Source of the DNA: Patescibacteria group bacterium
GTDB taxonomy: Bacteria; Patescibacteriota; Doudnabacteria; UBA920
Assembly: GCA_013387205.1 (NCBI GenBank)
Contig: WARV01000024.1
Coordinates: 11,283-75,282, forward strand
Length of the DNA stretch: 64,000 nucleotides
Direction of reading: 5' to 3'
The notes under the pieces are model-generated. The model saw only the letters and a program-made list of their open reading frames with translations. It ran no database searches and was not told the DNA's origin. Positions 4,052-48,039 of this stretch are shown one piece after another. Numbering within the stretch: the first letter of the stretch is position 1; each line of letters begins with the position of its first letter. Both the position numbers and the translations under genes were made by a program.

Positions 4052-4172
4052 ATACGAATTTATTGATACTAATATACGAATTAATGCTAATGATACTAAT
4101 GGCTACTAATGCGTACTAAGAAAGAATTAGTTATACATTCGTTTCATTAGTATTCATTGGTAGATTGGTATC
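4052..4172. mobile_element. MITE-like repeat family H, copy 1 (ACGAATT...CTAATGCGTACTAAG...ATTAGT...)
   Basis: Paralogs at 28445-28568 and 47916-48039 share a near-identical AATGCGTACTAAGA(A/G)AGAATTAGTT core. It fills the whole rplR-downstream spacer. Confidence 0.7.
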
Positions 4173-9989: not shown

Positions 9990-10086
9990 TTGAACAAAAT
10001 TTAAAAAATTAAATAAAATTGAACATAATTATAACTGCAGCTTATTTTTGTCTTTTATGTCAATTTTGTCATTTTTGTCATTCCCC
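9990..10086. repeat. Family C spacer element with phased 9-bp TTTTTGTCA/TGTCA direct repeats
   Basis: TAAATTAATTGAACAAAATTTAAA...ATGTCAATTTTGTCATTTTTGTCATTCC. It is about 90% identical to 10425-10528 and its repeats are shared with 38795-38865. Confidence 0.7.
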
Positions 10087-10419
10087 TTACTTCTTCTCCG
10101 GTTCCTTGGCTGCCTGCAGCTTGGCTTTTTCGGCCGCTGCCTTGGCTGCTTCCTGCTCTTTGGCCATCTTACCGCCATGCCTGATGAATTTCCTGGTTAG
10201 GGCGAATTCGCCGAGCTTGTGGCCGACCATATTTTCGGTAACGAATACCGGCATGTGGGCCCTGCCGTTATGGACCAAAAAGGTAAAGCCTACCATCTCA
10301 GGGGCGATTGCGGAATCGCGCGACCAGGTTTTAATCTGGTCTTTTCCCGGACGTCCGGCCAAAACCTTTTTCATTAATTTTGGATCAATAAATGGTCCTT
10401 TTTTTAGCGATCTAGACAT
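10087..10419 (-). CDS. rpsS: 30S ribosomal protein S19 with Ala/Lys-rich C-terminal tail
   Basis: 110 aa. Confidence 0.95.
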
Positions 10420-10424
10420 AAATT

Positions 10425-10528
10425 AATTGAGCAAAATTTAAATAATTAAATAAAATTGAACATAATTGATACTGCAACTCTTGCTTATATTTTTATCATT
10501 TATGTCAATTTTGTCATTTTTGTCAATT
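10425..10528. repeat. Family C spacer element, copy 2
   Basis: See 9990-10086. Confidence 0.7.
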
Positions 10529-11365
10529 CTACTTGCTTCTCCTCTTAACTATCATCCTATTGCTATATTTCTTCTTGGTTCTGGTCTTAACGCCAAGTGC
10601 GTGTCTGCCCCAAGGAGTTTTTGGATATTTCAAACCAATCGGGTTATGGCCTTCTCCACCACCATGAGGGTGATCAACAGGGTTCATCACTTTACCTCTG
10701 ACAGACGGCCTCCAGCCCATTAATCTCTTTCTTCCGGCCTTGCCTATCCGTACGTTCATCCAGTCGGAGTTCGCAACCTGGCCAATAGATGCCAAAGCAG
10801 TTTCCTTGATTTTCCTAATTTCGCCGCTGGGCATTTTAAGCAAAGCATATCCGGCTTCAATGTTCTGCAAAGTGGCGTAGCTTCCGGCGCTTCTGGAAAT
10901 CCTGCCGCCCTGTCCCGGTATCAATTCAATGTCATGGATCAAGGTTCCAACTGGTATCCTGCTTATAGGCAGCCTGTTGCCTGGCTTGATTTCTGCGCTT
11001 TCAGAATAAATAACAGTATCGCCGACTTTCAACCCTTCCGGAGCCAAAACGTATCTCTTAGTCCCGTCTTTGTAAGCGACTAAAGAAATAAATGCGCTGC
11101 GGGTCGGATCGTATTCCAAAGTCTGAACCTTGGCCGGAATATCTTTCTTGTCGATTCTGGAAAAATCAGTGATTCTCAAAACTCTCCTGAATCCCCCGCC
11201 CTGGTGGCGGACGGTAATTTTGCCGCTGTTATTGCGGCCAGCCTGCTTGGTTTTTGCCACGAGCAAATGGCGCGGAGTCTGGACATTCTTCTTTAAAACA
11301 GAATAATCCGTAACACTGTGAATACGCCTTCCTGCAGATGTTGGTTTGTAAATTTTTACGCTCAT
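10529..11365 (-). CDS. rplB: 50S ribosomal protein L2
   Basis: 278 aa. Confidence 0.95.
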   Translation of the reverse strand: MSVKIYKPTSAGRRIHSVTDYSVLKKNVQTPRHLLVAKTKQAGRNNSGKITVRHQGGGFRRVLRITDFSRIDKKDIPAKVQTLEYDPTRSAFISLVAYKDGTKRYVLAPEGLKVGDTVIYSESAEIKPGNRLPISRIPVGTLIHDIELIPGQGGRISRSAGSYATLQNIEAGYALLKMPSGEIRKIKETALASIGQVANSDWMNVRIGKAGRKRLMGWRPSVRGKVMNPVDHPHGGGEGHNPIGLKYPKTPWGRHALGVKTRTKKKYSNRMIVKRRSK

Positions 11366-28189: not shown

Positions 28190-28444
28190 TTACAACGCGC
28201 CTTCTTGTTTTAAAATTTGCTGCTTGCGCCTGCGGCCGCGATTGTAGCCGCCGGGTTTTCCATCTGCGCGAATAACACGGTGGCAAGGAATTTCGGGGTT
28301 ATAATTTTTGCTTAAAATATTTCCGACAGCTCTAAAAGCTCCGGGGCTTCCGGCGAATTCCGCCACTTCCCCATATGTCAAAGTCTGGCCTTTGGGGATT
28401 TTTTTGACGATTTCGTATACGCGTTGGGTAAAAGTCTTGTTCAT
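28190..28444 (-). CDS. MGMT-family (O6-alkylguanine-DNA alkyltransferase C-terminal domain) protein
   Basis: 84 aa with PCHRV active-site motif. It is the Ogt/Ada C-terminal domain only. Confidence 0.8.
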   Translation of the reverse strand: MNKTFTQRVYEIVKKIPKGQTLTYGEVAEFAGSPGAFRAVGNILSKNYNPEIPCHRVIRADGKPGGYNRGRRRKQQILKQEGAL

Positions 28445-28568
28445 AATTACGAATTATACTGACCAATCTACTAATGTAACGAATAAAGCGAATGACAACT
28501 AATGCGTACTAAGAGAGAATTAGTTGTCATTGGTTATTATTAGCATGAATTCGTTGATTGGTTAATCC
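28445..28568. mobile_element. MITE-like repeat family H, copy 2
   Basis: It fills the entire spacer between the MGMT start and the DUF3048 stop. Confidence 0.7.
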
Positions 28569-31216: not shown

Positions 31217-31290
31217 TGGTCGGGATGCCGAGAATCGAACTCGGACTACATGCACCCCATGCATGCGTACTACCACTATACTACATCCCG
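31217..31290 (-). tRNA. tRNA-Pro (anticodon GGG)
   Basis: Minus strand reads CGGGATG-TA-GTAT-AGTGGTA-GTAC-G-CATGC-ATGGGGT-GCATG-TAGT-CCGAG-TTCGATT-CTCGG-CATCCCG-A-CCA. The C1:G72 pair is typical of bacterial tRNA-Pro. Confidence 0.85.
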
Positions 31291-34152: not shown

Positions 34153-34237
34153 GGCCGAGTGGCGGAATTGGCAGACGCGCACGACTCAAAATCGTGTATC
34201 GAAAGGTGTGAGGGTTCGACTCCCTCCTCGGCCACCA
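34153..34237 (+). tRNA. tRNA-Leu (anticodon CAA), type II with long variable arm
   Basis: GGCCGAG-TG-GCG-GAATTGGCAGA-CGC-G-CACGA-CTCAAAA-TCGTG-TATCGAAAGGTGTG-GAGGG-TTCGACT-CCCTC-CTCGGCC-A-CCA. Confidence 0.85.
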
Positions 34238-38646: not shown

Positions 38647-38865
38647 AGATTAAATGACAAAATTGACAAAATTTAAATAATTAACATAAATGACGCTTGG
38701 CGTCATCCTGAGCGAATGCAGCTGAGCGAAGGATCTCTTGAGCAACAAGAGAAGATTCCTCGGCTGCACTCGGAATGACAACTTCATATAAAATAAGGTT
38801 TGTCATTTTTGTCATTTATGTCATTCTCGTCGTTTTTGTCATTTGGATTATTTTTGTTTCCATAT
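38647..38865. mobile_element. Composite palindromic element: TGACAAA(A) 9-bp direct-repeat arrays flanking a GTCATCCTGAGCGAATGC...GCACTCGGAATGAC inverted-repeat core
   Basis: The core at about 38690-38790 is paralogous to in-frame insertions at 41181-41325 (leuS) and 49920-50070 (M24 peptidase). The flanks share TTTTTGTCA units with family C. Confidence 0.7.
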
Positions 38866-38901: not shown

Positions 38902-41900
38902 TCAAATTACCAGGTTAATGAGTTTGTTTGGCACATAAATTACGCGTTTTATTTCACTTGTGCCGACTGCTTTTTTTACCTGCTCTACCACCAACGCCTC
39001 TGCCTTGACTTCGTCCTGGCTGCTATCCCGCTTAATGGACAGCTTAGCTTTAACTTTTCCGTTGACCTGTACAACAACATCAACAGTCTGGTCTATCACC
39101 AAAGCAGGATTATATTTTGGCCATTCGTGCTCTTGCAAAGATTTTTTATTGCCGAATAAAGAATACAGTTCTTCGCAAAAATGCGGGGCAAACGGGTACA
39201 TTAAAGCCAAAAAAGTTTTTAAAGAATCTAAAGTTATAAAGTCCTGCTTTATTTCATTATGGAATTCCATAAAGCTGGAAACAGCGGTGTTAAACCTCAT
39301 ATTTTCCAAATCTTCCGTAACCTTTTTAATTAGCTTATGCAAAGCTTTTTCTACTTTTTCCGTATCTTTAACTCCCTGATTATTTTTCGCATGAGGAGAA
39401 CTAATAACTTCATTCGCCCAAACCCAAACCCTGTCTAAAAACCTTCTCACGCCCAAAATCCCCTTATCGTTCCATGATACGGTCATTTCGTGCGGCCCCA
39501 AAAAAGGCTCGTACATCCTTAGAGTATCAGCTCCGAACTTTTTAACCACTTCGTTGGGATTAACCACATTTCCGCGGCTTTTAGACATCTTCTCGCCGTC
39601 CGCGGCTAAAATGATTCCATGAGGCTTTCTTAATACATAAGGTTCTTTGGTAGTAACCAACCCCTGGTCGTATAAGAACAGATTCCAAAAACGGGAGTAC
39701 AGCAAATGCAAAGTCGTATGTTCCATTCCTCCAAAGTAAACATCCACCGGGATCCAATACTTCTGCTTCTTTTTGTCAGAAAAAACTTTTTTATCTTTAG
39801 GGTCAATATACCTTAACCAATACCAAGAAGATCCTGCCCATTGCGGCATAGTATTGGTCTCGCGCTTGGCCGGCCCTTTGCATTTTGGACATTTTACATT
39901 TACCCAAGTCTCAATTGCGGCCAAAGGAGACTCCCCTGTCCCAGTCGGTTCGTAATTCTCAACCTCCGGCAATTTAACCGGCAAATCTTTTTCCGGCACC
40001 GCAACGATGCCGCACTTTTCGCAGTGAATTATAGGAATTGGCTCGCCCCAATATCTTTGCCTGCTAAAAACCCAATCTCGCAGCTTGTACTGCACGGTTA
40101 ATTTTCCGAACTCTTTTGCCATTTTTTCAATCGCTTGTTCTGAACCTAATCCGGAAAATTTTCCGGAGTTTATAAGCGTACCGTATTCCACGGAAGCCTT
40201 AGCTAATACCGGGGATGCAATGGCGCTGTCGATTATTTCATCCATTAATTCCGGAAGTTCTTTTAATCCCGACGATGTACCAAAATGGCCCTTGTTTTTC
40301 AAGACAACTGTATTCGCTTGCATATCTCTTTCGTATAAATCCTTTACCGACAAAGGTATATGTTCGTCGTTATCAGAAAACAAAGCAGTCGTTCCGGCTA
40401 CTAAATCCCGGATTTTTTCCCAATCCAAAGAAGCCTGCGAAACTTTCTGGATAGCTTCTGCTGGAGAATCGGCATGGTTGTCGCGATACCATTCCCAATC
40501 CATATCCGGATGGGTTGGTGCAACTAAAAATAAATGCCTAATCTTTTTGTTGAATTTCATCAGAAACTGCAAAGCGGTAGGCGCTCCCAAACTATACCCT
40601 ATAACAAGGGAGTTCTCATTTATCTCATCTTTATACTTTTCCAAAACCTTCAGTCTTTTATTTAAATCCGGGGTTCCCTGGTCATTCATATCAGGAGATA
40701 TCACTTTATATCCCAAGGCAGATAATTTTTCAGAAAGCCATGGAAACCAATTATTTTTGCCGTTACCGTTAGTCCCATGCAGCAACAAGACCGTACCGAC
40801 ATATTGCGGACGGACCACCTGGGTTATGGGCAAATTAAATTTTTGGGCAAACTCGAAATCGCGCTCGTCGTGTGCCGGCACAGCCATAATCGCGCCCGTG
40901 CCATAACCCCACAAAACGTAATCCGCAACCCATACCGGAATTTCTTCCTTCGTCGCGGGGTTAATTGCTTTTATACCTTTTAGTTCAACGCCGGTCTTTT
41001 CTTTTTCCAAAGACGTCCTTTGTGTTTCCGTTTCGCTCTTTACATCCTCGATATACTTTCTGACTTCCCCATAATTCTTAATTCTTGATTCTAAATTCTG
41101 CACCAACGGATGTTCAGGCGCCACAACCATATAAGTCGCGCCAAAAATAGTATCCGGGCGGGTAGTAAAGACTTTAATCTTCATGGCGTCATCCTGAGTC
41201 CCGGATGCATCTGAGGGACGAAGGATCTCTTTATTTGACTGAGGGTGAGATTCTTCGCTCGGCTGCACTCGCTCAGAATGACGCCGAGAGGATAATATCA
41301 CTTCGCCTTTTGCACTCCTCACAATGACACCGAAATCTATTTCCGCGCCAACGCTTTTTCCAATCCAGTTTTCCTGCTGCAGCTTAACAGCCTCCGGCCA
41401 CTCCGGCAGATTTTTTAACCCTTCCAAAAGCTTTTCGGCGTAAGCCGTAATTTTCAAATACCACTGCCTTAACTCTTTTTTTACAACAACAGTTCCGCAC
41501 CTGTCGCATTTGCCGTCAATCACTTCTTCGTTAGCCAGCCCGGTTTTATCTTTAGGGCACCAGTTTATAAGCCCGGTAGCTTCGTAAGCCAAGCCTGCTT
41601 CAAAAAACTTCAAAAAGATCCACTGCGTCCATTTATAATAGTCAGGATCCGTGGTGTTTACTTCCCTGCTCCAATCGAAACTAGTTCCCCAGGATTCAAG
41701 CTGGGCTTTGGCATTTTTGATATTTTTTGCCGTGGAAATGCTCGGATGGATATGGTGCTTTATTGCAAAATTTTCCGCAGGCAAACCAAAAGCATCCCAA
41801 CCGATTGGGTATAATACTTCATGGCCTTTCATGCGTAAGAAGCGGCTGTAAATATCCCCGGCAATATAAGGGCGCAAGTGTCCCATGTGCAAACCTTCGC

Positions 41901-42033
41901 CGGAAGGGTAAGGAAATTCCACCAGCACATATTTTTTCGGATTTTTTGAAAAATCTTTAGCGACAAAAGTTTTTTTCTGCTGCCAATATTTCTGCCACTT
42001 CTTTTCAATTTGTAATGGGTTATATTTCTTCAT
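38902..42033 (-). CDS. leuS: Leucine--tRNA ligase carrying two in-frame insertions (an RPE-like palindromic insert and an RBBP9/YdeN-like alpha/beta-hydrolase domain)
   Basis: HMGH and KMSKS class I motifs, a CP1 editing domain, and the anticodon-binding C-terminus. The ORF is 1062 aa from a TTG at 42090; I placed the start at the ATG at 42033 (1043 aa). Confidence 0.95.
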   Translation of the reverse strand: MKKYNPLQIEKKWQKYWQQKKTFVAKDFSKNPKKYVLVEFPYPSGEGLHMGHLRPYIAGDIYSRFLRMKGHEVLYPIGWDAFGLPAENFAIKHHIHPSISTAKNIKNAKAQLESWGTSFDWSREVNTTDPDYYKWTQWIFLKFFEAGLAYEATGLINWCPKDKTGLANEEVIDGKCDRCGTVVVKKELRQWYLKITAYAEKLLEGLKNLPEWPEAVKLQQENWIGKSVGAEIDFGVIVRSAKGEVILSSRRHSERVQPSEESHPQSNKEILRPSDASGTQDDAMKIKVFTTRPDTIFGATYMVVAPEHPLVQNLESRIKNYGEVRKYIEDVKSETETQRTSLEKEKTGVELKGIKAINPATKEEIPVWVADYVLWGYGTGAIMAVPAHDERDFEFAQKFNLPITQVVRPQYVGTVLLLHGTNGNGKNNWFPWLSEKLSALGYKVISPDMNDQGTPDLNKRLKVLEKYKDEINENSLVIGYSLGAPTALQFLMKFNKKIRHLFLVAPTHPDMDWEWYRDNHADSPAEAIQKVSQASLDWEKIRDLVAGTTALFSDNDEHIPLSVKDLYERDMQANTVVLKNKGHFGTSSGLKELPELMDEIIDSAIASPVLAKASVEYGTLINSGKFSGLGSEQAIEKMAKEFGKLTVQYKLRDWVFSRQRYWGEPIPIIHCEKCGIVAVPEKDLPVKLPEVENYEPTGTGESPLAAIETWVNVKCPKCKGPAKRETNTMPQWAGSSWYWLRYIDPKDKKVFSDKKKQKYWIPVDVYFGGMEHTTLHLLYSRFWNLFLYDQGLVTTKEPYVLRKPHGIILAADGEKMSKSRGNVVNPNEVVKKFGADTLRMYEPFLGPHEMTVSWNDKGILGVRRFLDRVWVWANEVISSPHAKNNQGVKDTEKVEKALHKLIKKVTEDLENMRFNTAVSSFMEFHNEIKQDFITLDSLKTFLALMYPFAPHFCEELYSLFGNKKSLQEHEWPKYNPALVIDQTVDVVVQVNGKVKAKLSIKRDSSQDEVKAEALVVEQVKKAVGTSEIKRVIYVPNKLINLVI
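40216..40809 (-). other. Alpha/beta-hydrolase (Ser_hydrolase/RBBP9/YdeN-like) domain inserted in the LeuRS leucyl-specific domain
   Basis: Residues near 428-625: VLLLHGTNGNGKNNW (HG oxyanion), VIGYSLGA (GxSxG nucleophile elbow), FSDNDEHIP (acid), KGHF (His). Flanked by canonical LeuRS ..FNLPITQVV and GTLINSGKFSGL. Confidence 0.75.
41181..41325. mobile_element. RPE-like palindromic element inserted in frame in leuS
   Basis: GGCGTCATCCTGAGTCCCGGATGCATCTGAGGGACGAAGGATCTC ... GATTCTTCGCTCGGCTGCACTCGCTCAGAATGACGCC. It encodes the low-complexity segment IVRSAKGEVILSSRRHSERVQPSEESHPQSNKEILRPSDASGTQDDA, between the conserved IDFGV and KIKVFTTRPDT. Confidence 0.75.
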
Positions 42034-42086
42034 AATAGTATATTCATTATTTCCTCTCCCTTTAGGGAGAGGGTGGGGTGAGGGGG

Positions 42087-42452
42087 TCAATTTTTCAAAA
42101 ATTGATAAATTCTATTTAAAACCCCTTCTAAATTTTCATCTAAGTCATTATCCCAAAATCTTAAAACAATATATCCTTGATCTCTCAAAAGTTTATCTCT
42201 TAATGAATCGGTAATTTTTTTCTGAAGATGATGACTACCATCTAATTCAATGATTAATCTTTTTTTGATACAAATAAAATCAACTATAAAATTTCCAATC
42301 GGATACTGCCTTCTAAATTTAAAATCTTTAAACCTTCTATGTCGCAGAAGATACCATAATTTTTGTTCCCAAGGAGTTTGATTTATCCTTAACTTCCTGG
42401 CTGCTTGTATCAAATTTTGGTTTTCAATCCCCCTCATCCGTCCTCCGGCCAC
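42087..42452 (-). CDS. DUF559 (endonuclease-domain, Vsr-like fold) protein
   Basis: 121 aa, ..NQTPWEQKLWYLLRHRR..FKFRRQYPIGNFIVDFIC....IIELDGSHH....D..RD..L...GY.VLRFWDNDL. Flanked by CTCCCTttaGGGAGAG (42055-42070) and CTCCCTcaGGGAGAAGG (42455-42475) hairpins. Confidence 0.8.
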   Translation of the reverse strand: MAGGRMRGIENQNLIQAARKLRINQTPWEQKLWYLLRHRRFKDFKFRRQYPIGNFIVDFICIKKRLIIELDGSHHLQKKITDSLRDKLLRDQGYIVLRFWDNDLDENLEGVLNRIYQFLKN

Positions 42453-47373: not shown

Positions 47374-47915
47374 ATCTTTTCCAACCATTGTTTTATCTTA
47401 AGTTGATTGCTTAAAGTGCAAGAGTTGCACCAATTTTCAGGATGGGATAATAATTCCTTATTATATTCATCCATATTATACCATTTCGCGCCAATGATTT
47501 CCCCATCATTGAATATTAATTGGCTTATGTCGCTATTGAACAAATATGCGTAGTTTTCGTAAAAATGCATCCATGGTTCGTATTTGCCTTTATCAATTAA
47601 TACTAAACCGGATTCTCTTACAGCAAGCCCGACTTCTTCCTCCAGTTCAGCAAGCGCGGTTTTTAAAAAAGATGACCCGGCTTTAACATGGCCGCCCAAA
47701 TAACTTTGCCATTTTCCCGGATTACCGGACAAGTGCAAAGCCCGCCTTGTGCACAAAATCTGCCCTTGCTTGTTTACCAGCCAAATGTTTGCCACGGCAT
47801 GCCACTGCCTGGTGCCATCCCTACAGACCAAACTGCGCGGCTTTGGTTCGGTTAAATTTCCCTGTTCATCGAAACAAGACAAAAGCTCGTCATTTGGGTT
47901 TGTTTTTGTTTCCAT
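47367..47915 (-). CDS. NUDIX hydrolase
   Basis: 182 aa. Nudix box GGHVKAGSSFLKTALAELEEEVGL. Confidence 0.8.
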   Translation of the reverse strand: METKTNPNDELLSCFDEQGNLTEPKPRSLVCRDGTRQWHAVANIWLVNKQGQILCTRRALHLSGNPGKWQSYLGGHVKAGSSFLKTALAELEEEVGLAVRESGLVLIDKGKYEPWMHFYENYAYLFNSDISQLIFNDGEIIGAKWYNMDEYNKELLSHPENWCNSCTLSNQLKIKQWLEKIC

Positions 47916-48039
47916 ATTAACGAATTAGCTTGACTAATCAACTAATGTAACGAATATTACCAATGATAACTAATGTTATCTAAGTAAGGATTAGTTGCCA
48001 TTAGTTATTATTAGTATGGATTCGTAGATTAGTTAATTA
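47916..48039. mobile_element. MITE-like repeat family H, copy 3
   Basis: It fills the NUDIX-M16 spacer exactly, from start codon to stop codon. Confidence 0.7.

Follow-up and report, generated by a model that had tools for sequence, protein, structure and literature searches.

Leucyl-tRNA synthetase (LeuRS) receives the 3' end of its tRNA in the CP1 domain, and bacterial LeuRS enzymes with CP1 are known in structure from Thermus thermophilus (1H3N/2BTE), Escherichia coli (4AQ7/4ARC) and Neisseria gonorrhoeae (6Q89). The RBBP9/YdeN family of serine hydrolases (PF06821) is likewise represented by solved structures (1UXO; 2QS9/7OEX). Here we describe a leuS gene in which members of these two families are found in a single reading frame, on the minus strand of a 64,000 nucleotide stretch of Patescibacteria group bacterium DNA (contig WARV01000024.1, positions 11,283 to 75,282; this whole stretch is called the window). 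We are highly confident that the gene encodes a complete bacterial-type LeuRS of the Patescibacteria (candidate phyla radiation, CPR), closest to Candidatus Doudnabacteria, with an independently folding RBBP9/YdeN-family serine hydrolase with an intact catalytic triad nested in a loop of CP1.

RBBP9, the only characterised member of the hydrolase family, is an aminopeptidase which removes N-terminal aromatic residues; it cleaves aminoacyl-X bonds by way of an aminoacyl-enzyme and needs a free alpha-amine on the substrate, which is bound by Glu108, Ser76 and Tyr99 (PMC8866121). Domain fusion and swapping are known in TyrRS, TrpRS and LysRS of CPR bacteria and were noted as common (Mukai et al., PMC5370408), and another class I synthetase with an added domain is recorded as NCBIfam NF040702 ('isoleucine--tRNA ligase, N-acetyltransferase domain-containing'). 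The CPR additions are terminal or RNA-binding (PMC5370408) whereas in the window LeuRS a hydrolase is nested in the editing domain. A 2026 survey of domain insertions found the CP1 editing domain of LeuRS to be insertion-only and never the host of another domain (PMC13114784), a generalisation which a LeuRS with a hydrolase in CP1 contradicts. Full-text literature searches found no description of this architecture, and no paper with both 'LeuRS' and 'candidate phyla radiation' was found in the literature searched. A preliminary description of the window, made from the DNA letters without database searches, had held that either of its two explanations of the arrangement would be novel. The arrangement is undescribed in the literature searched, but its uniqueness was overstated since the same architecture is present in many public CPR and DPANN assemblies. 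In public records such proteins are named leucine--tRNA ligase, or in some cases by JGI 'leucyl-tRNA synthetase/predicted alpha/beta hydrolase family esterase'. Both parts belong to known families, and the window gene is a new member of an unremarked architecture and no singular oddity.

The open reading frame 38902..42090 on the minus strand is unbroken, with no stop or frameshift, and encodes 1062 aa if translation starts at TTG or 1044 aa if it starts at the conserved ATG (42036). In the public record of the protein (P0156, 1062 aa, NCBI) the start is TTG 42090, which is 18 codons upstream of this ATG. In the alignment to 1h3n the N-terminus MKKYNPLQIEKKWQ (MKKYNP) pairs with Met1 of T. thermophilus LeuRS, and this conserved N-terminus favours ATG 42036 as the leuS start. 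The whole protein scored 995.8 bits against TIGR00396 (leuS_bact, cut-off 548.4), which passes the equivalog threshold, and matched T. thermophilus LeuRS 1h3n over its full length at E=8e-228. The class I motifs HMGH (aa 50) and KMSKS (aa 816) are present, as are the threonine-rich TTRPDT (aa 291-296) and AHDERD (aa 388-393, with the Asp of HDxRD) of the CP1 editing site, and, like other bacterial LeuRS, the protein has Zn knuckles, an anticodon-binding domain and a C-terminal domain. A full-length AlphaFold2 (AF2) model was obtained with pLDDT 85.5 and pTM 0.77, and solved LeuRS structures matched it with TM scores of 0.80-0.84, normalised to the target. The window LeuRS differs from these enzymes in three ways: CP1 contains an extra hydrolase of 193 aa, the CP1 N-hinge has a loop of 45 aa which is encoded by a repeat, and there is no leucine-specific domain.

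The absence of the leucine-specific domain bears on the place of the insertion, which the preliminary description had put in that domain. This was refuted; the insertion site is in CP1, between T. thermophilus residues 363 and 373, and the alignment to 1h3n passes from T. thermophilus residue 592 to 637 with no query residues between them, a short AADGE peptide preceding KMSKS (AADGEKMSKS). A leucine-specific domain before KMSKS is found in most but not all LeuRS and is not required for membership of the family. The LeuRS of Mycoplasma mobile (3ZIU) has lost CP1 whereas the window LeuRS keeps CP1 and adds a domain to it, and both enzymes show that large changes around CP1 are tolerated by LeuRS. 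The two are also alike in having no leucine-specific domain and a short peptide before KMSKS (PMC3643597).

The preliminary description had proposed a full LeuRS with an in-frame RBBP9/YdeN-like serine hydrolase at 40216-40809, and this was borne out, with coordinates which proved right within 5 codons when the protein was compared with its insert-free relative P0158 (insert at 40231-40809). The segment 40216-40809 covered positions 1-167 of the 172 in the PF06821 (Ser_hydrolase) model, with E=4.3e-20 and 72.8 bits where the gathering score is 22, and matched YdeN of Bacillus subtilis (1uxo) at E=7e-15; a profile of the insert and its relatives matched YdeN 1uxo at E=2.3e-39 and human RBBP9 at E=3e-27. 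Known editing families (YbaK/INS, AlaX, DTD, a second CP1) did not match the insert, only alpha/beta-hydrolase families did, and a scan of the window found no PF06821 copy besides the insert. When the insert was modelled by itself with AF2 the confidence was very high (pLDDT 94.9, pTM 0.92), and the best structural neighbours of this model found with Foldseek were YdeN 1uxo (TM 0.83/0.88, rmsd 2.3 A) and RBBP9-Phe 7oex (TM 0.78/0.83). The models show a hydrolase which is predicted to fold as an independent domain. With about 190 aa it is of the same size as the free-standing RBBP9/YdeN proteins and shares their fold (TM 0.78-0.88) and their triad, set in the motifs G-x-S-x-G, D-D/N-D-P and G-H-F; it differs from them in being nested in a domain of another enzyme, in having only 18-24% identity to the solved members and in having a longer lid region.

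The HG, GYSLGA, acid and His motifs are all as they had been named in the preliminary description, being H420-G421 in the oxyanion region, Ser482, Asp557 and His584, and they align with YdeN and RBBP9 (Table 1). Over 107 LeuRS-embedded copies of the hydrolase the Ser of the triad is invariant (107/107), its His is kept in 104/107, its Asp in 96/107 and the glycine of HG in 103/107, a retention which resembles that in free-standing relatives. The conservation of the triad in the embedded copies argues that the hydrolase is an active enzyme, and the motifs point to two complete catalytic machineries within one polypeptide. An inactive remnant or structural spacer, that is a tolerated non-catalytic domain or one which offers bulk or a regulatory surface on CP1, is unlikely. 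The insert is dispensable in close relatives and its lid region (aa 515-534) is of low confidence in the full-length AF2 model, as might be expected of a remnant, but its triad and oxyanion motifs are intact and conserved over the embedded copies, the insert model is very confident and the frame is without stops or frameshifts. The alpha-amine ligands of RBBP9 fall in this lid region, where there is no reliable alignment to the insert. The hydrolase domain is acidic, with a net charge of -7, as are all embedded and free-standing copies, and from its composition it appears to offer no RNA-binding surface of its own.

The hydrolase enters CP1 in a loop about 17 residues past the editing motif AHDERD, where the PF13603 editing-domain match is broken at model position 143 of 185. 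The insert starts with PQYVG after VVR and ends with DEII before DSA, and alignment to insert-free orthologs shows that the native variable loop resumes after the insert, with the GTLINSGKFSGL motif of the CP1 remainder beginning at aa 619. About 7 residues link the hydrolase to CP1 on the N side, while on the C side the linker is the native loop of about 12 residues, which is of low model confidence. By these alignments the hydrolase replaces nothing in LeuRS and is an addition to the CP1 loop. The figure of about 30 residues given previously for the E. coli loop was loose, as 9 T. thermophilus residues are unaligned between the flanking blocks and about 18 residues lie between 'QVV' and 'G-INSG' in the closest insert-free relatives.

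An assembly chimera, in which a separate hydrolase gene had been mis-joined into leuS, might be suspected because the contig is of metagenome type and the exact protein is in one public record only (P0156). We consider this very improbable since the frame is continuous, both junctions fall exactly at one loop and the native loop resumes beyond the insert, the same site is occupied in at least 10 independent assemblies and other sites in dozens more, and the composition of the insert is similar to that of the host gene (GC, 0.41 against 0.43 for the rest of leuS; GC at third codon positions, 0.41 against 0.45/0.48). In-frame insertion in a conserved essential gene is also the classic setting of an intein, and an intein or other self-splicing or mobile selfish insertion was judged to be the least probable explanation of all. 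Pfam searches gave no match to Hint, intein or homing-endonuclease families, LAGLIDADG included, there is no Cys, Ser or Thr at the +1 position and no terminal His-Asn, and the insert is a bona fide enzyme fold; the absence of intein hallmarks had been recognised from the DNA letters and this reading held. No direct or inverted repeats or target duplications were found at the insert junctions, only repeats of 10-22 nt, which is chance size, and no hallmarks of transposable or miniature elements (terminal inverted repeats, target-site duplication) were found at the insert bounds. A heptamer, CGGTACG, common to both junctions was considered as an insertion scar and rejected, being of chance size and reflecting a native Y-x-G motif. 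The earlier suggestion of a captured selfish domain gained no support, as flanking repeats, endonuclease and splicing motifs were not found.

Table 1. Features of the window leuS gene, blocks of its alignment to T. thermophilus LeuRS (Tth) 1h3n, and sites of hydrolase insertion in LeuRS. Positions are those of the window and residues those of the 1044-aa protein.
Feature	Position	Strand	Residues	Remarks
leuS coding sequence	38902..42036	-	1044 aa	from ATG 42036, stop codon included
CP1 editing domain, N-terminal part	40804..41193	-	282-411	PF13603 E=2.5e-59, model 18-143 of 185; Tth 240-363
Hydrolase insert	40231..40809	-	410-602	~193 aa, in frame; bounds from alignment to insert-free orthologs
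PF06821 match within insert	40243-40791	-	416-598	Pfam search
Nucleophile codon	40591..40593	-	Ser482	GYSLGA elbow; aligns to YdeN AHSLG, RBBP9 GHSSG (Ser75)
Acid codon	40366..40368	-	Asp557	SDNDEHIP; aligns to YdeN SKDDQIVP
Catalytic His codon	40285..40287	-	His584	KGHF; aligns to YdeN GGHF, RBBP9 CGHF
Native variable loop and CP1 C-terminal remainder	40087..40230	-	~603-650	aa-650 end estimated; Tth 373 onward
Second insert, CP1 N-terminal hinge (site B)	41188..41325	-	238-283	45 aa; gap against Tth 236-240
Alignment block			284-409	Tth 240-363
Alignment block			611-824	Tth 373-592
Alignment block			816-1044	Tth 637-876
Site A (the site in the window)				CP1 loop after FEFAxKFxLPIxxVV; L001-L003, P0008, P0010, P0013, P0017, P0020, P0266, P0180
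Site B				CP1 N-hinge between GAEIxF and VFTTRPDT; most of the nearest relatives
Site C			672-675	just after the CxxC knuckle (these residues) following CP1; P0015, P0016, P0019, P0027, P0030, P0224, P0272 and others
Site D			207/208	before the WIGKS motif; L005, Gracilibacteria LeuRS

Homologs of the insert were sought exhaustively with HMMER among 1.84 billion representative proteins, with 1712 matches at E<=1e-3, and by a genome scan with one genome per species. Among the best 150 of the 1712 matches 23 were LeuRS or LeuRS fragments with an embedded hydrolase, and the genome scan found a YdeN-like hydrolase at the exact site of the window in L001-L003 with 35-37% identity over the insert and both flanks. 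The preliminary description had proposed a check of related genomes for such insertions, and all of the proteins listed under site A in Table 1 have the hydrolase at the same site. The sites were mapped by anchoring on five LeuRS segments together with multiple alignment. Pairwise MAFFT alignment had placed P0224 and P0272 at the site of the window, a placement which was rejected when anchoring on LeuRS segments and multiple alignment assigned both to site C. The hydrolase of P0007 is displaced downstream by a few residues into the INSG/F-G motif and follows a Nudix domain. The host phyla are Gracilibacteria, Saccharibacteria, Peregrinibacteria, Parcubacteria and Dojkabacteria, with one Nanohaloarchaeote (DPANN). 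This last protein, P0017 (RLG13644.1), is a bacterial-type LeuRS of a DPANN archaeon with the hydrolase at the CP1 site of the window, so the architecture crosses the boundary between bacteria and archaea among ultra-small organisms.

The 119 nearest LeuRS relatives of the window protein, those with names being mostly Candidatus Doudnabacteria or Patescibacteria, include 72 distinct proteins which bear the hydrolase. It was found at site B in 69 of the 119, at site A in 2 (P0266 and P0180) and at site C in 2, while 16 have a Nudix domain (at site A where mapped), 9 of them Nudix alone and 7 with hydrolase elsewhere, 3 have other inserts (methyltransferase, Ham1, unassigned) and 35, of 781-882 aa, have no insert; these categories overlap because P0180 appears under site A as well as site B and the seven proteins with Nudix and hydrolase are counted twice. 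The closest relative of all, P0158, is 78% identical to the window LeuRS over shared columns and lies in the same metG-tatD-leuS synteny, yet is without any insert, which indicates that the inserts are gained or lost quickly. HxGH, KMSKS, TTRPDT and HDxRD are retained about equally in LeuRS with and without inserts, so the hydrolase is an addition and not a substitute for a dead editing site. By these alignments the hydrolase-bearing LeuRS is a recurrent and evolutionarily labile architecture with at least four sites in and around CP1.

Hydrolase domains of one site class had a mean identity of 0.36-0.39; for domains of different classes it was 0.25-0.31, which is no higher than that between embedded and free-standing copies. 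A neighbour-joining tree of 235 hydrolase domains, approximate since it was made from identity-based distances with no bootstrap, placed site B in what is nearly one clade (71/78), and sites A and C shared a clade which also holds 16 free-standing proteins. We read this as probably at least two separate hydrolase captures, plus site D. The core of the window LeuRS is nearest to LeuRS with the hydrolase at site B or with no insert, while its hydrolase is nearest to site-A copies (P0007, 43%; P0266, 42%; P0008 and P0010, 39%), a mismatch which may fit either an old insertion at site A with many losses or transfer by recombination.

Other enzymes are found at the same LeuRS sites in relatives, namely Nudix, Ham1/ITPase, methyltransferase and HAD domains, with Nudix in the CP1 loop and Ham1/ITPase-like domains at the CP1 N-hinge of other CPR LeuRS. 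Such domains were seen in L002, L003, L045 and L012 (in L012 a Nudix further downstream in LeuRS) and in P0006, P0007, P0020, P0039, P0177, P0203, P0264 and P0167, up to three extra domains being found in one LeuRS (P0006, for example, has two hydrolases and a Nudix), and Ham1 occurs together with the hydrolase in L002, L003, P0020 and P0039. The hydrolase family is also fused elsewhere, with one example each for adenylate kinase, signal peptidase II, inositol monophosphatase, GNAT, methyltransferase and other alpha/beta hydrolases. Four clusters of two-domain proteins join Ser_hydrolase to Nudix (P0357, P0110, P0384, P0388), and between these Nudix domains and the LeuRS-embedded ones there is generic Nudix-box similarity only. 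Five clusters join Ser_hydrolase to PF01588 tRNA_bind of Trbp111/MetRS-C type (P0354, P0365, P0369, P0372, P0373; E 1e-20 to 1e-25); they are closely related to one another and probably represent one event. The tRNA_bind fusion in locus L083 (4007-4897) adjoins rsgA and ruvX.

At site B, where most close relatives bear the hydrolase, the window LeuRS has the second insert of Table 1, which is encoded by a palindromic repeat of about 100 nt predicted to form a hairpin (RNA fold -48.2 kcal/mol, z -4.0). Residues 250-282 of this peptide have pLDDT <50 in the full-length AF2 model and are predicted to be disordered. A second copy of the palindromic repeat, with a mostly identical left arm, lies at 38690-38790 (+) in the spacer just downstream of leuS. 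Other short repeat-like peptides were seen at site B in P0161, P0266 and L002. In AT-rich spacers of the window there are TTTTGTCAT-like runs with 9-nt periodicity at 38795-38859, just downstream of leuS, and at 10043-10089 and 10479-10534, with inverted partners at 38652-38684. The window also has many families of repeats (D2-D12 and inverted pairs; 40-125 nt, identity 68-94%) dispersed along it, for example at 4089-4169, 28442-28566 and 47913-48037, which suggest a genome rich in small repeated elements.

The explanation which we slightly prefer, as the more parsimonious one, is that the hydrolase is an autonomous and active enzyme which is carried as a passenger in a permissive loop of CP1, and we give this a probability of about 0.5. 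It is favoured by the presence at the same sites of unrelated inserts (Nudix, Ham1, methyltransferase, HAD) and of a translated palindromic repeat, by the quick gain and loss among close relatives with P0158 insert-free, by the many unrelated fusion partners of the hydrolase, and by the intact CP1 editing motifs and the acidic hydrolase surface. LeuRS, with HMGH, KMSKS, TTRPDT and HDxRD all in place, would function as usual and the hydrolase would be a second, autonomous active site, in which Ser482 would attack an acyl substrate to form acyl-Ser482 and the product would be released by water activated through His584 and Asp557. By analogy with RBBP9 the substrate is probably a small ester, or an alpha-aminoacyl ester or amide. 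Both the CP1 loop and the hinges would be permissive to insertion in LeuRS, an essential protein which is expressed constitutively, and a small housekeeping hydrolase that had landed there would be expressed along with LeuRS without needing its own gene or promoter in a streamlined genome. As a passenger the hydrolase would be no replacement for LeuRS editing.

Several observations weigh against a mere passenger. Among proteins closely related to the hydrolase, LeuRS is by far the commonest large host, accounting for the 23 of the 150 best representatives given above as compared with one each for the other partners, and the insertions, which occupy at least four sites across several CPR phyla and the Nanohaloarchaeote, are all in or beside CP1. 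At least two clades of hydrolase appear to have been captured separately, site B forming a clade of its own and sites A and C grouping with free-standing proteins. In one lineage the hydrolase is joined to a tRNA-binding domain of Trbp111 type, and RBBP9 as the only member with a known activity cleaves aminoacyl-X bonds and needs a free alpha-amine (PMC8866121). These points would agree better with a functional link between the hydrolase and the chemistry of aminoacyl-tRNA than with a passenger which arrived at random.

It is conceivable, and we offer it tentatively as the less probable alternative, that the hydrolase is an auxiliary enzyme coupled to LeuRS, its substrate being an aminoacyl-linked compound that the synthetase makes or binds. 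Candidate substrates would be the acceptor end of mischarged aminoacyl-tRNA(Leu), a leaked non-cognate aminoacyl-adenylate, an adenylate-mimicking inhibitor, or the N-terminal residue of leucine-supplying peptides; Ser482 would take the aminoacyl group in the way that Ser75 of RBBP9 does, and CP1 or a fused tRNA-binding domain would deliver the substrate. In addition to the points just listed, the conserved Ser-Asp-His triad, the aminoacyl-enzyme of RBBP9 (PMC8866121) and the co-occurrence of hydrolase and Nudix both inside LeuRS and in two-domain proteins speak for such a coupling. Against it, the intact CP1 editing motifs leave no obvious gap to fill, and the same sites are occupied by Ham1, methyltransferase and HAD domains, which have no rational connection with LeuRS. 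The hydrolase is also fused to many other, unrelated partners, its fusions to tRNA_bind all belong to one closely related group and count as a single event, the hydrolase domain is acidic, and close relatives manage without it. Finally, differences in the lid region prevent a confident alignment of the residues which bind the alpha-amine in RBBP9. The evidence divides in the same manner over the idea in the preliminary description of a role in editing or deacylation, with the tRNA_bind fusions and the free alpha-amine requirement of RBBP9 (PMC8866121) for it and the unrelated domains at the same sites, the many partners and the intact CP1 motifs against it. Compared with dedicated editing modules (class Ia CP1, INS/YbaK/ProXp, AlaX, DTD) the hydrolase differs in fold and family, and at most the two may be alike in function, in that an aminoacyl ester is hydrolysed close to the acceptor end of the tRNA. 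A wider proposal is that the hydrolase represents a new class of proofreading or deacylase module, built on the alpha/beta-hydrolase fold and acting on aminoacyl esters, or else that it hydrolyses aminoacyl-adenylates or their mimics, and that ultra-small CPR bacteria and DPANN archaea would have recruited it repeatedly to the tRNA acceptor end, by nesting at several sites around the LeuRS editing domain and in a separate lineage by Trbp111-type fusion. We regard this, too, as less probable than not. We know of no alpha/beta-hydrolase editing domain that has been described.

The gene order at the locus is metG - tatD - (DUF559) - leuS - MFS transporter. The DUF559 (endonuclease-like) gene at 42087-42452 (-), identified at E=5e-40, lies between tatD and leuS, and its stop codon overlaps TTG 42090; at the syntenic locus L081 there is no DUF559 gene and leuS directly follows tatD. 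A tRNA-Leu(CAA) gene is located at 34153-34237 (+), about 4.7 kb from leuS, and further tRNA genes in the window are tRNA-Ala(CGC) at 765-838 and tRNA-Pro(GGG) at 31217-31290.

Most of the nearest LeuRS relatives of the window protein bear extra enzymes, which are placed at a few fixed sites around CP1 and are acquired or lost from one close relative to the next. Should the hydrolase be a passenger, as we prefer to think, LeuRS would be a striking natural scaffold for domain insertion and a clear case of streamlined symbiont genomes packing functions into essential genes. If instead it is coupled to LeuRS, it would represent a module of a new kind, serving quality control in translation or self-protection.

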